From the UHGV virus genome UHGV-0171999: a DNA stretch of 64,000 bases. One strand, 5' to 3'. Within the stretch, counting starts at the first letter, position 1, and each line of letters starts with the position of its first letter. The position numbers were made by a program, and so were the translations under genes. The notes beneath the pieces were generated by a model that worked only from the letters and a program-made list of their open reading frames with translations, made no database searches and was not told the DNA's origin. Positions 12,607-24,735 of the stretch are shown in pieces. This DNA is from a virus.

Positions 12607-12679
12607 TGGGAATTAGCCAAGTTGGTAAGGCACTGGATTTTGATTCCAGGATGCAAAGGTTCGAGTCCTTTATTCCCAG
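12607..12679 (+). tRNA. tRNA-Gln (anticodon UUG)
   Basis: Cloverleaf by eye: acceptor tgggaat/attccca, anticodon loop ttTTGat, T-loop TTCGAGT. Confidence 0.8.
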
Positions 12680-12680
12680 C

Positions 12681-12767
12681 GCGAGAATGGTCAAATTGGT
12701 AAAGGCACAGCACTTAAAATGCTGCGGAATGATTTCCTTGTGGGTTCGAGTCCCACTTCTCGCACCA
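12681..12767 (+). tRNA. tRNA-Leu (anticodon UAA), long variable arm, CCA encoded
   Basis: Acceptor gcgagaa/ttctcgc, anticodon loop ctTAAaa, T-loop TTCGAGT, ends ACCA. Confidence 0.8.
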
Positions 12768-12772
12768 AATTT

Positions 12773-12846
<74 letters not shown>

Positions 12847-12856
12847 ATTTAATTTA

Positions 12857-12931
12857 CTCCGTGTAGCTCAATGGCAGAGCGATCGCCTGTTAAGCGATTG
12901 GTTATAGGTTCGAATCCTATCACGTCCGCCA
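12857..12931 (+). tRNA. tRNA-like element, anticodon GUU (Asn), three mismatches at the acceptor-stem end; possible pseudo-tRNA
   Basis: D-arm GCTC/GAGC, anticodon stem atcgc/gcgat with loop ctGTTaa, T-arm atagg-TTCGAAT-cctat, 3' GCCA; 5' ctccgtg pairs with 3' cacgtcc at only 4 of 7 positions. Confidence 0.4.
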
Positions 12932-12935
12932 AATC

Positions 12936-13011
12936 CGAGGCATAGCTCAGAAGGAAGAGCAAGGACCTTCTAAGTCCTAGGTCGTAGGTTCGATCCCTAC
13001 TGCCTCGACCA
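12936..13011 (+). tRNA. tRNA-Arg (anticodon UCU), CCA encoded
   Basis: Acceptor cgaggca/tgcctcg, anticodon loop ctTCTaa, T-loop TTCGATC, ends ACCA. Confidence 0.8.
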
Positions 13012-21517: not shown

Positions 21518-21547
21518 GTTTACTTTTCCTCTTGACTGTGGTATAAT
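21518..21547 (+). promoter_or_regulatory. early promoter upstream of regB
   Basis: GTTTACT, 17 bp, TGgTATAAT. Confidence 0.6.
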
Positions 21548-22043: not shown

Positions 22044-22589
22044 ATGAGAAAAGCACTACTCGCTGGTCTATTGGCCATTTCAATGATGGCACATAGCTCC
22101 GAGCATACTTTCAGTAATGTCCAACTCGATAACATGCGTTACGCGTATCAATTCGGGGAACAATTTTCTAAGGATGGAAAATATAAAACACACAAAAATA
22201 TCCATAAAAGCGGATTAGGTCATATAATGGCTGCTATTTTATGGCAAGAAAGCTCTGCCGGAGTTAATTTAAAATCTAAACCGAAGCATCATGCCTACGG
22301 AATGTTCCAAAACTATTTGCCGACCATGCGTGCAAGAGTTAAGGAACTTGGTTATAATATGACCGATGCCGAAATAAAAAGAATGTTGAATAAACGGTCC
22401 AATTCAGCTTCCTGGGCGTACATTGAACTTTCTTATTGGTTAAATATACATAAGGGTGATATAAGAAAGGCAATATCCTCTTATAATTCGGGATGGAATG
22501 TTAAAGCAGGTTCTAAATATGCTTCTGAAGTCCTAGAAAAGGCTAACTACTTTAAAAATAATAAACTACTGGAAATAGTAAATGACTAA
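22044..22589 (+). CDS. secreted lytic-transglycosylase-like protein (vs.1 position)
   Basis: Signal peptide MRKALLAGLLAISMMAHS; SLT-like motifs WQESSAG and YGMFQ. Confidence 0.5.
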   Translation: MRKALLAGLLAISMMAHSSEHTFSNVQLDNMRYAYQFGEQFSKDGKYKTHKNIHKSGLGHIMAAILWQESSAGVNLKSKPKHHAYGMFQNYLPTMRARVKELGYNMTDAEIKRMLNKRSNSASWAYIELSYWLNIHKGDIRKAISSYNSGWNVKAGSKYASEVLEKANYFKNNKLLEIVND

Positions 22590-22929
22590 AATTTTGGTTT
22601 TATGTATAGGATTAATTTCATTTTCTGCTTATGCGTCAGCAGATATATCATATTCTGAAGTTAGAGAGTATGTAAACCGTACTGCCGCGGATTATTGTGG
22701 GAAAAATAAAGCATGCCAAGCTGAATTTGCACAGAAATTAATATATGCATATAAAGACGGAGAAAGAGATAAATCAAGCAGATACAAAAACGATACATTA
22801 TTAAAACGATATGCTAAAAAGTGGAATACCTTAGAATGTTCAGTTGCGGAGGAGAAAGATAAAGCCGCTTGTCATTCAATGGTTGACCGTTTGGTAGATT
22901 CTTATAATCGAGGATTGAGTACTAGATGA
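22582..22929 (+). CDS. vs: valyl-tRNA synthetase modifier (Vs)-like secreted protein
   Basis: 115-aa ORF with signal peptide; size and position as recalled for T4 vs. Confidence 0.55.
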   Translation: MTKILVLCIGLISFSAYASADISYSEVREYVNRTAADYCGKNKACQAEFAQKLIYAYKDGERDKSSRYKNDTLLKRYAKKWNTLECSVAEEKDKAACHSMVDRLVDSYNRGLSTR

Positions 22930-23405
22930 TTGTAAAATATATCAAGGGCGATATTGTCGCCCTATTTCTTCAAGGTAATATTATTGCGCACGGGTGCAAT
23001 TGCTTCCACACAATGGGCTCTGGTGTAGCTGGTCAATTAGCAAGAGCCTATCCCAAAATTTTAGAAATAGATAAGACCACAACTGAATATGGTTCGCGTG
23101 AAAAACTCGGTGATATGTCTATTGTTTTTAGACATAAACCTAATGGTTTTGGTATATGCTATAACCTGTATACACAATACGAACCAGGTCCTAATCTTGA
23201 TTATGGTGCTTTAGTAAACTGCATGATAGAATTAAATCTACAGGCAGAAACCCTTTTGTTTAAACCAGTAATTTACATTCCACGCATAGGTTGTGGTATT
23301 GCTGGCGGTGATTGGGATAAGGTTTCTAAATTAATCGACATGTTTACTCCTGATATTGATTTAATAGTGGTGGATTATGAAAGTACATTACCCACATCCG
23401 TTTGA
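22926..23405 (+). CDS. macro-domain (ADP-ribose binding/processing) protein
   Basis: Motifs KGDIVA...IIAHGCNC...GSGVAG...RIGCGIAGGDW resemble the macro-domain fold. Confidence 0.55.
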   Translation: MIVKYIKGDIVALFLQGNIIAHGCNCFHTMGSGVAGQLARAYPKILEIDKTTTEYGSREKLGDMSIVFRHKPNGFGICYNLYTQYEPGPNLDYGALVNCMIELNLQAETLLFKPVIYIPRIGCGIAGGDWDKVSKLIDMFTPDIDLIVVDYESTLPTSV

Positions 23406-23589
23406 TCCTAAAAACAAAGCAGAAATTATTCGTCAATGGGAACGCATTTGCCGTACTAAATGCCCAATTAATAGTCCTCATGATGTAGATAAAGACTATA
23501 TTGGAACATTCGTTGAATATACCTTCATTGATAGGAAAGGTCGTAAACAACATGTAGAAGAATATTGCTTAAAGGTTACATGGTTATGA
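23377..23589 (+). CDS. hypothetical small protein
   Basis: 70-aa ORF. Confidence 0.3.
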   Translation: MKVHYPHPFDPKNKAEIIRQWERICRTKCPINSPHDVDKDYIGTFVEYTFIDRKGRKQHVEEYCLKVTWL

Positions 23590-23792
23590 GCCAAACTAGT
23601 ATTCTTAAAAATGCCCATTGTGAAAAGTGTAAATGGCCTGTTGTTTTTGCTTTATGTAATGATGAAATGGCCTGTGATTTCGACTATTGGTGCTATTGTT
23701 CTAATAAAGGATGCATCAATCATAAAGGTGAAGGATTTTATTCAGGATTTTATCCTTATCCTGATTTCGTTAAAGAAGGTAAACCAAAATGA
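23565..23792 (+). CDS. hypothetical Cys-rich small protein
   Basis: 75-aa ORF with CEKCKW...CNDEMACDFDYWCYCSNKGC. Confidence 0.35.
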   Translation: MLKGYMVMSQTSILKNAHCEKCKWPVVFALCNDEMACDFDYWCYCSNKGCINHKGEGFYSGFYPYPDFVKEGKPK

Positions 23793-23958
23793 ATAATTTT
23801 GAGTTACAATATGAAGTGTTACGTGAGCTTGATAATTTAATTGAACTCGCTGTTAATAAAGGTTTTGCCATTGGAATCGGTCAAAAAGATACTGACCATT
23901 TAACTACGGAAATATTTAAGCAAAAGCGAATTATTTTAAAACTCCTGGAAATTAATAT

Positions 23959-24144
23959 ATGAGTCTAAGTAAAGAACAAAAAGATAAATTGTTTGAGCTT
24001 ATCCATGAACTTCTAGATGAGCATGCAGAAGCAAACACCTTTTATGATGAATACGGCCCGCTATCTCCCGAACAACAAGAAGAATTTGCTGACCGGTTTG
24101 ATAAGAAAGAAAACGAATTAATAGCTTATGTGAATACGCTTTAA
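23959..24144 (+). CDS. hypothetical small acidic protein
   Basis: 61-aa ORF. Confidence 0.4.
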   Translation: MSLSKEQKDKLFELIHELLDEHAEANTFYDEYGPLSPEQQEEFADRFDKKENELIAYVNTL

Positions 24145-24153
24145 GAAGGTGAT

Positions 24154-24735
24154 ATGGCGAGTTTAATTTTTACTTATGCAGCAATGAATGCTGGAAAATC
24201 TGCTTCTCTTTTGACTGCCGCACATAATTATAAAGAACGTGGGATGAGTGTATTAGTTCTTAAGCCTGCTATTGATACTCGCGATTCTGTCTGTGAAGTC
24301 GTTTCTCGCATTGGAATTAAGCAGGAAGCGAATATTATTACGGATGATATGGATATTTTTGAGTTCTATAAATGGGCTGAAGCACAAAAAGATATTCATT
24401 GCGTATTTGTAGATGAAGCTCAATTTTTAAAAACTGAACAGGTGCATCAATTAAGCCGAATTGTTGATACATATAATGTTCCTGTTATGGCTTATGGTCT
24501 AAGGACTGATTTCGCTGGAAAATTATTTGAAGGTTCTAAAGAACTTTTGGCGATTGCAGATAAACTTATTGAACTGAAGGCAGTTTGTCATTGCGGCAAA
24601 AAAGCGATTATGACAGCTCGATTAATGGAAGATGGAACACCAGTTAAAGAAGGTAATCAAATCTGTATTGGTGATGAAATTTATGTTTCTTTGTGTAGAA
24701 AACATTGGAACGAATTAACTAAAAAGCTCGGTTAG
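24154..24735 (+). CDS. tk: thymidine kinase
   Basis: 193-aa ORF with P-loop AAMNAGKSASLL and C-terminal zinc motif; matches recalled T4 Tk. Confidence 0.9.
   Translation: MASLIFTYAAMNAGKSASLLTAAHNYKERGMSVLVLKPAIDTRDSVCEVVSRIGIKQEANIITDDMDIFEFYKWAEAQKDIHCVFVDEAQFLKTEQVHQLSRIVDTYNVPVMAYGLRTDFAGKLFEGSKELLAIADKLIELKAVCHCGKKAIMTARLMEDGTPVKEGNQICIGDEIYVSLCRKHWNELTKKLG

Follow-up and report, generated by a model that had tools for sequence, protein, structure and literature searches.

Tk.4 of a T4-like phage: a stand-alone macrodomain, predicted ADP-ribosyl hydrolase and probable counter-measure to DarTG2

The tk.4 locus and its expression signals

The window analysed is the whole 64,000-nucleotide stretch of viral genome UHGV-0171999, which comes from a T4-like Tequatrovirus. 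Its ORF listing includes an ATG open reading frame of 159 amino acids between vs and tk.3. The features around it are the following.

21519..21547, plus strand: sigma-70-like promoter sequence upstream of regB, TTTACT-17-TATAAT with TG (consensus scan only)
22582..22929, plus strand: vs (valyl-tRNA synthetase modifier), upstream neighbour, 97% identical to T4 Vs
22926..22929, plus strand: ATGA overlap, in which the vs stop codon shares bases with the tk.4 start codon
22926..23405, plus strand: tk.4 / adfM-type coding sequence, 159 aa, a single macrodomain of the ALC1-like/TARG1-like class (ORF, Pfam, PHROG, AlphaFold2, Foldseek and 57% identity to T4 Tk.4)
22945..22963, plus strand: 8-bp GC-rich hairpin, AGGGCGAT-ATT-GTCGCCCT, followed by a T-rich tail (terminator-like scan), lying in codons 7-13, on the left border of the divergent block
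~22960..23385, plus strand: divergent allele block, with nucleotide identity to T4 of 45-73% against about 90-100% on either side (60-nt sliding windows)
23377..23589, plus strand: tk.3 orthologue, downstream neighbour, 70 aa, 93% identical to T4 Tk.3

A preliminary description of this DNA had read the frame as a macro-domain protein gene between vs and tk, and this placement is borne out, with tk further downstream at 24154..24735. The tk.3 gene overlaps the 3' end of tk.4 by 29 nt, and the gene order and overlap pattern of vs, tk.4 and tk.3 are the same in the window, T4 and PP01. Because it is located between vs and tk.3, the window ORF is the positional orthologue of T4 tk.4. With these two genes as its neighbours, it has no darT adjoining it.

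How might tk.4 be expressed? The ATGA layout at the vs/tk.4 junction is typical of translational coupling, and such a function may be supposed from the sequence. A GAG is present about 7 nt upstream of the start codon. The tight overlaps of tk.4 with both vs and tk.3 suggest co-expression, and the compact gene string regB-vs.1-vs-tk.4-tk.3 has a candidate early promoter in the sequence at 21519..21547. Promoter-like sites found in the region by the sigma-70 scan show no excess over shuffled sequence (11 found, 16 expected), and a regular-expression search upstream of tk.4 for a MotA-box middle promoter gave no match. For these two reasons timing can be given only conditionally: a consensus promoter match and the gene packing are what point to early expression. 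Tk.4 protein of T2, which is identical to that of T4, has been detected during infection. The hairpin at 22945..22963 has exact copies in T4 and PP01; as an RNA fold in its 81-nt context it is not exceptional (z=-1.4).

Macrodomain class and active site

The window Tk.4 matches the Pfam Macro family (PF01661) far better than chance, with E=3.1e-8 and 34 bits where the gathering cut-off is 22, over profile positions 2-117 of 118, and it matches PHROG 335 at 2e-71. Homologues are found by tblastn in 2767 phage records. The motifs on which the preliminary description had relied are all in the translation, i.e. KGDIVA (7-12), IIAHGCNC (19-26), GSGVAG (31-36) and RIGCGIAGGDW (120-130), and the two computational checks it had proposed, an HMM search and a structure prediction, both came out in favour of a macrodomain. 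AlphaFold2 with an 80-sequence alignment, a run that replaced one on the single sequence (pLDDT 33.8), gave a three-layer alpha/beta macro fold with pLDDT 94.5 and pTM 0.89.

Foldseek matches this model with probability 1.00 to the macrodomains of TARG1, BT1257, Poa1p and DarG (TM 0.72-0.82); the TARG1, Poa1p and DarG matches are ADP-ribose-bound structures. At E<=0.001 the PDB yields 160 matches, of which the best 50 are all macrodomains or macrodomain-based designs. The order of relatives agrees with that given by a profile of 80 homologues searched against the PDB, where BT1257 (1e-19), TARG1 (8e-17), SCO6735 (1e-15) and Poa1p (7e-15) are followed by DarG (2e-11 to 3e-10), and SARS-CoV-2 Mac1 reaches only 4.5e-3. 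Window Tk.4 belongs to the ALC1-like/TARG1-like class and not to the MacroD, PARG or viral Mac1 classes. It is a stand-alone, single-domain macrodomain and, judged from sequence, a predicted ADP-ribosyl hydrolase. The NCBIfam equivalog for DarG (NF048014) scores 27.8 bits on window Tk.4 against a cut-off of 250, which is not reached, and the PADLOC DarG model 27.9 bits; the DarG HMMs match over their macrodomain part only (positions 2-144 of 329-338).

Could Tk.4 regulate or erase the ADP-ribosylation of host proteins by the phage's own Alt, ModA and ModB? The preliminary description had raised such a regulatory role, for which the cited literature offers no support, and it appears very improbable. 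To our knowledge, arginine-linked ADP-ribose is removed by ARH-type hydrolases and not by macrodomains of the TARG1/DarG class. An eraser encoded in the same genome is conceivable because T4-like phages encode three ADP-ribosyltransferases, which modify RNA polymerase, EF-Tu, S1 and MazF, but the Alt/Mod targets are arginine-linked, e.g. Arg265 of the RNA polymerase alpha subunit and Arg84 of MazF (PMC8120803). Moreover, tk.4 adjoins vs and tk.3, not alt, modA or modB.

The residues that would form the ligand pocket and active site are encoded as follows.

22989..23000, plus strand: codons H22-G23-C24-N25 (MAFFT), invariant in 80 homologues; N25 corresponds to SCO6735 Asn27 and DarG N22, and H22 to SCO6735 His24
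23013..23033, plus strand: loop 1, M30-G-S-G-V-A-G36, a GxG ADP-ribose-binding loop that aligns with MG(A/K)G(I/V)A of TARG1 and DarG
23175..23177, plus strand: codon Q84 (CAA), in the catalytic Lys column (TARG1 K84, TaqDarG K80, PhiKZ AdfM K78), where SCO6735 has Gln85
23289..23315, plus strand: phosphate-binding loop, G122-C-G-I-A-G-G-D-W130, with A126 at the TARG1 Asp125 position

Judged by sequence and alignment, the putative ADP-ribose-binding loops, MGSGVAG (30-36) and GCGIAGG (122-128), are both present and conserved. In loop 1, G33 and A35 are invariant in the 80 homologues and M30 is nearly so, and G31 is 90% conserved in distant homologues. H22, N25, Q84, G122, G124 and W130 are invariant in the same set. 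The column of Q84 was fixed by HMMER profile alignment to TARG1 and by MAFFT.

A glutamine in this position has a precedent. SCO6735 cleaves ADP-ribose off thymidines in ssDNA and confers protection from DarT; its Q85A mutant is inactive, N27S retains hardly any activity, and its Gln positions the substrate, with a water molecule proposed to start catalysis (PMC9411070). The window's PRIGCGIAGG aligns with PRIGCGLAGG of SCO6735, the loop that holds Gly128 being compared as a whole. The Lys34 column of SCO6735 is S32 in window Tk.4, and the loop after Q84 is six residues shorter than the mobile SCO6735 loop that carries Lys89, and has no Lys. Since Lys34 and Lys89 are not conserved, DNA binding by Tk.4 must differ from that of SCO6735.

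Proposed role, alternatives and two alleles

The gene identity and likely role of tk.4 are already in the literature. T4 tk.4 (NP_049723.1, 155 aa) carries the note 'contains A1pp phosphatase motif', and the A1pp/macro annotation dates from 2006. Database names such as 'phosphatase', 'Poa1p-like' and 'RNase III regulator' match ADP-ribose-1''-phosphate or O-acetyl-ADP-ribose substrates. DarTG systems stop phages by ADP-ribosylating phage DNA. T4 without adfA and adfN remains DarTG2-resistant, and a further anti-DarTG2 factor was therefore predicted (PMC11825919). In a T4 transposon library under DarTG2, tk.4 was the single significant hit, and a clean knockout makes T4 DarTG2-sensitive; the gene was renamed adfM (anti-DarT factor Macrodomain), and for T4 the case is a genetic one, with the hydrolase mechanism inferred (bioRxiv 10.1101/2025.11.20.689424). 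The preliminary description, which had left it undecided if T4 has an annotated orthologue, had suggested an anti-defence role against DarT-type toxins and a knockout on DarTG hosts. The orthologue exists, that knockout has already been done for T4, and the role is reported there and would extend to the window by orthology at 57% identity. A paper on mRNA ADP-ribosylation by CmdTAC, checked for a link to a T4 macrodomain, has macrodomains in its reference list only. The fold, family class, orthologous position and active-site residues come from the present analysis; the allele divergence (57% identity) and the invariant Gln at the catalytic Lys position are absent from the cited papers.

Taken together, window Tk.4 is probably made early and works as a hydrolase on the thymidines of single-stranded phage DNA, stripping them of DarT2-type ADP-ribose; it would be an orphan antitoxin against DarTG2 with a Gln-type active site. 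The gene would be transcribed early in infection, probably as part of the regB-vs.1-vs-tk.4 string. A host DarT2-type toxin would ADP-ribosylate thymidines in single-stranded phage DNA. The Tk.4 pocket, most likely made of loop 1 (MGSGVAG), the phosphate-binding loop (GCGIAGGDW) and N25, would bind the ADP-ribose, and cleavage of the ribose-thymine bond would restore replicable DNA, whereby Tk.4 would act as an orphan antitoxin. The active site would be of the glutamine type, with Q84 held by N25 and no Lys/Asp dyad, like SCO6735 and unlike DarG, TARG1 and PhiKZ AdfM. The window allele would have the same activity as that of T4, would protect by hydrolysis rather than by toxin binding and would be timed early. 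Speaking against a shared activity, AdfA and AdfB, other anti-DarT factors, occur naturally as active and as inactive alleles, and the window protein differs from the T4 one at 43% of residues. Hydrolysis of dT-ADPr is established for SCO6735, DarG and PhiKZ AdfM; for proteins of the Tk.4 type, a search of the accessible literature turned up no hydrolase assay.

Might the substrate of the window allele be another ADP-ribose conjugate? RNA ends or bases modified by other toxin ADP-ribosyltransferases, Glu/Asp-linked protein, ADP-ribose-1''-phosphate or O-acetyl-ADP-ribose would be candidates, and a reading along these lines seems improbable. The N-terminal half of window Tk.4 is closest to yeast Poa1p, an ADP-ribose-1''-phosphate phosphatase (phmmer E=1.6e-9, with residues 3-79 as the only significant stretch), and many records name tk.4 a phosphatase or O-acetyl-ADP-ribose deacetylase. 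But the 'phosphatase' label stems from a domain-name match of 2006 (A1pp) with no assay behind it, and the NCBIfam equivalog for YmdB/MacroD-type deacetylases (NF001661) scores 16.3 bits on window Tk.4, against a cut-off of 291 that is not reached. The ALC1-like class is promiscuous: TARG1 cleaves phosphate-linked ADP-ribose on RNA and DNA, and SCO6735 de-modifies PARP1. Macro domains also occur in about 41% of myoviruses, which is wider than one defence system predicts (PMC9503650). Against this, SCO6735 is inactive on 5'-phosphate-linked and 2'-OH-linked RNA ADP-ribose according to the results of one study, the discussion of which is worded differently (PMC11833690), and DarTG2 sensitivity is the sole phenotype found for the tk.4 knockout.

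The window and T4 proteins are 57% identical over 155 aa without gaps (E=2e-69), so that 43% of residues differ, whereas the flanking proteins are 93-100% identical. The first 14 residues are the same in both. Common to the two are the locus, vs, tk.4, tk.3, and the invariant motifs H-G-C-N-C, MGSGVAG, LYTQ and PRIG.G...W. The phosphate-binding loop differs: that of the window, GCGIAGGDW, resembles the family consensus, from which GAGIGKGNW of T4 AdfM diverges. Scored with an HMM built on distant members of the family, the window allele fits better than the T4 allele (183 and 168 bits), and the window allele keeps the consensus at three conserved columns where T4 deviates. Phage records with at least 90% identity number 319 for the window type and 224 for the T4 type. 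The DarTG2 phenotype on record is that of the T4 allele only.

Tk.4 might protect mainly by binding and blocking DarT2, with hydrolysis secondary or dispensable and allele divergence tracking DarT2 variants, which is judged unlikely. The allele block is sharply bounded, and identity between the two alleles is 33/36 at family-conserved columns and 55/119 elsewhere, a pattern that selection acting on a protein-protein surface could produce; the dead mutants SCO6735 Q85A, DarG K80A and TARG1 K84A still inhibit DarT in vitro, SCO6735 the most (PMC9411070), and the phage anti-DarT factors AdfA and AdfB work by binding the toxin. Yet N25, Q84 and both glycine loops are invariant across 80 distant homologues, and because this catalytic set is kept, it can be argued that ligand chemistry is the selected trait. 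Tk.4 also has no counterpart of the DarG C-terminal DarT-binding domain, and catalysis is how the related orphan enzymes AdfN and PhiKZ AdfM work.

With hydrolysis of thymidine adducts as the preferred reading, a further and more tentative proposal can be put forward: that Tk.4-type AdfM of T-even phages is a phage branch of stand-alone Gln-type macrodomains (SCO6735/BT1257-like), lysine-independent and water-initiated, and not a captured DarG, and that the swapped block could mark two functionally distinct alleles. If there were two functional alleles, each might suit its own DarT2 variants, or else other toxins that ADP-ribosylate nucleic acids; alternatively, a host factor might recognise one allele, the other having escaped it.

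The allele and active-site points leave the overall picture unchanged. Counter-measures of T-even phages are layered: they include AdfA, AdfN, which deals with guanine adducts, and AdfM/Tk.4, which probably deals with thymine adducts, and the window carries the slightly more frequent AdfM allele. Whether this allele behaves like that of T4 bears on which DarTG2-carrying E. coli and Shigella a T4-like therapeutic phage would be predicted to infect.

Comparison with known systems

Among anti-DarT factors, T4 AdfN (gp30.3) is likewise an orphan antitoxin-like hydrolase, but it has the unrelated NADAR fold and is specific to the guanine adducts of DarT1. AdfA and AdfB share the anti-DarT role of Tk.4 but are toxin binders without enzymatic domains. 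ICP1 AdfB was considered as a macrodomain precedent and rejected, being a mimic of the region of DarG that binds the toxin.

PhiKZ gp104, the chimallivirus AdfM, is a phage orphan macrodomain against DarTG2 and has its name in common with T4 AdfM; it de-ADP-ribosylates T-ADPr oligonucleotides biochemically, is expressed late and is imported into the phage nucleus (PMC13309987). It is DarG-like (133-138 bits on DarG HMMs, Lys78, PPLGCANGGL), whereas Tk.4 has 28 bits and Gln84, and BLASTP between window Tk.4 and gp104 gives E=0.001 over 33 residues only. The PhiKZ-type and Tk.4-type AdfM proteins belong to different subfamilies and are probably independent acquisitions.

DarG itself (Thermus aquaticus 5M31/5M3E, M. 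tuberculosis 5M3I) has the same fold and class as Tk.4 (Foldseek TM 0.72-0.76). Its N22 aligns with N25, the glycine loops are kept, and dT-ADPr on ssDNA is the presumed common substrate. The differences are Lys80 in place of Gln84, and the lack in Tk.4 of a C-terminal DarT-binding domain and of an adjacent darT. Human TARG1/OARD1 (4J5R) is the best structural match to Tk.4 (E=1e-9, TM 0.72-0.82), and both carry the KGD, PRIGCG and W motifs, but the TARG1 catalytic dyad Lys84/Asp125 is Gln84/Ala126 in Tk.4.

Closest in active-site type are the stand-alone Gln-type ALC1-like macrodomains SCO6735 of Streptomyces coelicolor (PDB 5E3B) and BT1257 of Bacteroides (2FG1/2AFC). They and Tk.4 have in common the Gln at the catalytic position, the locking Asn, the histidine that is His24 in SCO6735 and the PRIGCG.AGG.W loop, and in both PDB sequence searches with Tk.4, BT1257 is at the top and SCO6735 ranks above DarG. 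SCO6735 differs in having Val25 where Tk.4 has Gly23, and in being the product of a cellular, DNA-damage-induced gene rather than a phage gene. It protects against DarT though it is not a toxin-antitoxin partner. The Gln-type site of Tk.4 would be a natural second example, after SCO6735, of base-ribose cleavage without a catalytic lysine.

The tk.4 gene and its locus

The open reading frame that the preliminary description placed between vs and tk does lie there; its coordinates are exact and every motif quoted from it occurs in the translation.

Features of the tk.4 interval
22582..22929, + strand: vs, upstream neighbour of tk.4
22926..23405, + strand: tk.4/adfM-type open reading frame, ATG start, 159 aa
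24154..24735: tk, downstream boundary of the interval

A 3-kb query around it matched 758 phage records, about 400 of them 95-99% identical; those listed belong to the genus Tequatrovirus, T4-like phages that infect Escherichia and Shigella (such as LYE-01, Phaginator, PP01 and HY01). PP01 has the same frame annotated as tk.4, flanked by vs and tk.3, and the same position in T4 holds tk.4 (NP_049723.1, 155 aa), with product name 'phosphatase' and the note 'contains A1pp phosphatase motif'. The A1pp (macro) match of tk.4 orthologues was tabulated already in 2006 (PMC1524935). The frame has thus been described before, as tk.4/adfM.

Some observations concern the records and the neighbours. Orthologues of tk.4 are variously named phosphatase, RNase III inhibitor or Poa1p-like. 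The T4 RefSeq names of mobD.4 ('molybdopterin-guanine dinucleotide biosynthesis protein MobD') and rI.-1 ('starvation-inducible transcriptional regulator') also look doubtful, and are probably name-driven errors. The 96.9% identity of this coliphage region to the record 'Pseudomonas phage vB_PSGBLB0006' suggests that the record is contaminated or assigned to the wrong host. The tRNA cluster at 12607..13011 has four genes (Gln-UUG, Leu-UAA, Gly-UCC, Arg-UCU), a set that appears reduced relative to the eight of T4. Vs.1 (22044..22589, 181 aa) has a hydrophobic, signal-peptide-like N-terminus and resembles lytic tail proteins weakly in PHROG, in keeping with the SLT transglycosylase-like domain ascribed to it in 2006; for T4 its function is still entered as hypothetical.

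The macro-domain assignment stands. Pfam Macro gives 34 bits (gathering cut-off 22) over almost the entire profile, and PHROG 335 matches at 2e-71. AlphaFold2 reached pLDDT 34 on the single sequence and, with an alignment of 80 homologues, a confident model (pLDDT 94.5, pTM 0.89). The Foldseek matches listed from the PDB are macrodomains only: TARG1 is best (E=1e-9, TM 0.72-0.82), and behind it come BT1257, Poa1p and DarG macrodomains from T. aquaticus and M. tuberculosis. The 80-homologue profile ranks PDB sequences as BT1257 (1e-19), TARG1 (8e-17), SCO6735 (1e-15), Poa1p (7e-15) and DarG (2e-11 to 3e-10), with coronavirus Mac1 at just ~5e-3. This ranking and the Foldseek matches place the protein in the ALC1-like/TARG1-like class. 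Its homologues number 2767 phage records from many host genera, a spread that fits a survey in which a macro domain was present in ~41% of myoviruses (PMC9503650).

Active site and probable anti-DarT function

Sequences of SCO6735, BT1257, TARG1 and two DarG macrodomains, taken from PDB alignments, were aligned with the window protein, T4 Tk.4, a Streptomyces phage homologue and PhiKZ gp104. The catalytic-lysine column (TARG1 K84, TaqDarG K80, PhiKZ AdfM K78) holds Gln84 in the window protein, and glutamine also in T4 Tk.4, SCO6735 (Gln85) and BT1257; the HMMER profile alignment to TARG1 places Q84 at the same column. Q84 is invariant in 80/80 homologues, as are H22, G23, N25, C26, G33, A35, G122, G124 and W130. 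A126 occupies the column of Asp125, the second catalytic residue of TARG1. How might such a site work? SCO6735 cleaves off ADP-ribose that is linked to thymidine in ssDNA, and gives protection against DarT; Q85A abolishes its activity and N27S nearly does so, and in the proposed mechanism the glutamine positions the distal ribose while a backbone-held water is the proton donor (PMC9411070). The glutamine at the lysine column, taken with these mutants, gives the Tk.4 family an SCO6735-type, lysine-free centre. The DNA-positioning lysines of SCO6735 are not common to the family: K34 is S32 in the window protein, and the mobile loop bearing K89 is 6 residues shorter.

The preliminary description saw a possible anti-DarT factor or regulator of ADP-ribosylation, and proposed a knockout that has already been done for T4. 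In a T4 transposon library under DarTG2, tk.4 was the single significant hit, and T4 with a clean tk.4 knockout was sensitised to DarTG2; the authors pointed out a structural resemblance to M. tuberculosis DarG, renamed the gene adfM and inferred enzymatic removal of ADP-ribose from DNA (10.1101/2025.11.20.689424). This fills a gap, as T4 without adfA and adfN (gp30.3, a NADAR specific for guanine adducts) stays DarTG2-resistant (PMC11825919). The chimallivirus macrodomain PhiKZ gp104, independently named AdfM, strips thymidine-linked ADP-ribose from oligonucleotides in biochemical assays and is required on DarTG2 hosts (PMC13309987). These T4 and PhiKZ results support the anti-DarT hypothesis, which would extend to the window allele through orthology.

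Window Tk.4 is thus likely to be an orphan, antitoxin-like ADP-ribosyl hydrolase. DarT2-type thymidine adducts on phage ssDNA would be its substrate, and a Gln/Asn-based centre would take the ADP-ribose off thymidine. Could it instead erase the phage's own Alt/Mod marks? This is highly improbable: the marks are arginine-linked, and cleavage of that linkage is not known for macrodomains of this class. Action of the window allele on other ADP-ribose, on RNA, protein or a metabolite, is a reading with which the names 'phosphatase' and 'Poa1p-like' belong. It seems rather improbable, as DarTG2 sensitivity is the sole tk.4 knockout phenotype found, the window protein stays below the cut-off of the YmdB model, and the results of PMC11833690 describe SCO6735 as inactive towards RNA ADP-ribose that is phosphate-linked or 2'-OH-linked, although its discussion is worded differently.

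Allele exchange and expression

Window and T4 Tk.4 are just 57% identical (gapless, E=2e-69), against 99% for RegB and Vs.1, 97% for Vs, 93% for Tk.3, 99.5% for Tk and 100% for RI.1. In a sliding comparison, the nucleotides agree with T4 at 90-100% as far as 22959, at 45-73% from 22960 to ~23379 and at 82-95% from 23380 on. This drop and recovery show that the enzyme body was exchanged as a sharply bounded, cassette-like block, the first 14 codons being kept. Both alleles are common among sequenced phages: the window type is found at 90% identity or more in 319 records and the T4 type, which T2 also has, in 224, with 159 further at 80-90%.

An HMM of 52 distant homologues scores the window allele at 183 bits and the T4 allele at 168. 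The window allele has the family consensus at A126, G127 and I137, three conserved columns where T4 deviates; the phosphate-binding loops read GCGIAGGDW and GAGIGKGNW, respectively. The alleles agree at 33/36 conserved columns and just 55/119 others. Divergence outside the conserved columns would suit protection mainly through binding of DarT2, as would the retention of DarT inhibition by catalytically dead SCO6735, DarG and TARG1; we consider this unlikely as the main mode, and hydrolysis of the thymidine adduct stays the preferred reading.

A GC-rich hairpin with a perfect 8-bp stem and a T-rich tail (22945..22963, tk.4 codons 7-13) lies exactly at the drop of identity. It is kept in the T4 stretch (L002 4853-4871) and the PP01 stretch (L001 2440-2458), one GenBank record has a 'terminator' under the tk.4 match, and the hairpin's fold in context has a z-score of just -1.4. 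It may mark a recombination boundary, act in RNA stability or attenuation, or have arisen by chance. A second block variable relative to T4, at 23565..24144 between tk.3 and tk, contains no counterpart of T4 tk.1.

Small open reading frames of the second variable block, and a promoter-like site
23565..23792: 75 aa, cysteine-rich CxxC...CxC...C pattern, PHROG 2306
23789..23962: 57 aa, PHROG 3452
23959..24144: tk.2 orthologue, just 54% identical to the T4 tk.2 product
21519-21547: sigma-70-like site TTTACT-17-TATAAT with TG, upstream of regB, good consensus match

From regB through vs.1, vs, tk.4 and tk.3 to the small frames that follow, the genes lie on one strand, abutting or overlapping; the final 29 nt of tk.4 are shared with tk.3. 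A sigma-70 scan of the region as a whole gave no excess over the shuffled expectation and a pattern search upstream of tk.4 found no MotA-box match, so that early co-transcription of regB-vs.1-vs-tk.4-tk.3 is something we infer. Upstream, vs adjoins tk.4, its stop codon overlapping the tk.4 start (ATGA). T4 vs was the most strongly depleted gene in minimal medium (HIDEN-SEQ preprint, 10.1101/2025.11.20.689424), and these two conditionally important genes are possibly arranged for translational coupling. The T2 protein, identical to T4 Tk.4, is seen in infected-cell proteomes. The host sRNA ArcZ contacts the T2 tk.4 transcript in RIL-seq, with no change in protein level seen, in a 2026 preprint that mislabels tk.4 as 'putative thymidine kinase' (10.64898/2026.06.19.733364).

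Comparison with DarG and PhiKZ AdfM

Is the window protein a DarG proper? It scores 27.8 bits on the NCBIfam DarG equivalog, far below the cut-off of 250, and 27.9 bits on PADLOC DarG; both matches span just the macrodomain third of the profile, and no darT gene adjoins tk.4. On these grounds DarG proper is ruled out. DarG has a C-terminal toxin-binding domain, which the window protein lacks. With these models PhiKZ AdfM reaches 133-138 bits, and BLASTP links it to the window protein just marginally (E=0.001 over 33 residues). These differences place the T4-type and PhiKZ AdfM in different subfamilies, and the two proteins that share the name are probably independent recruitments.
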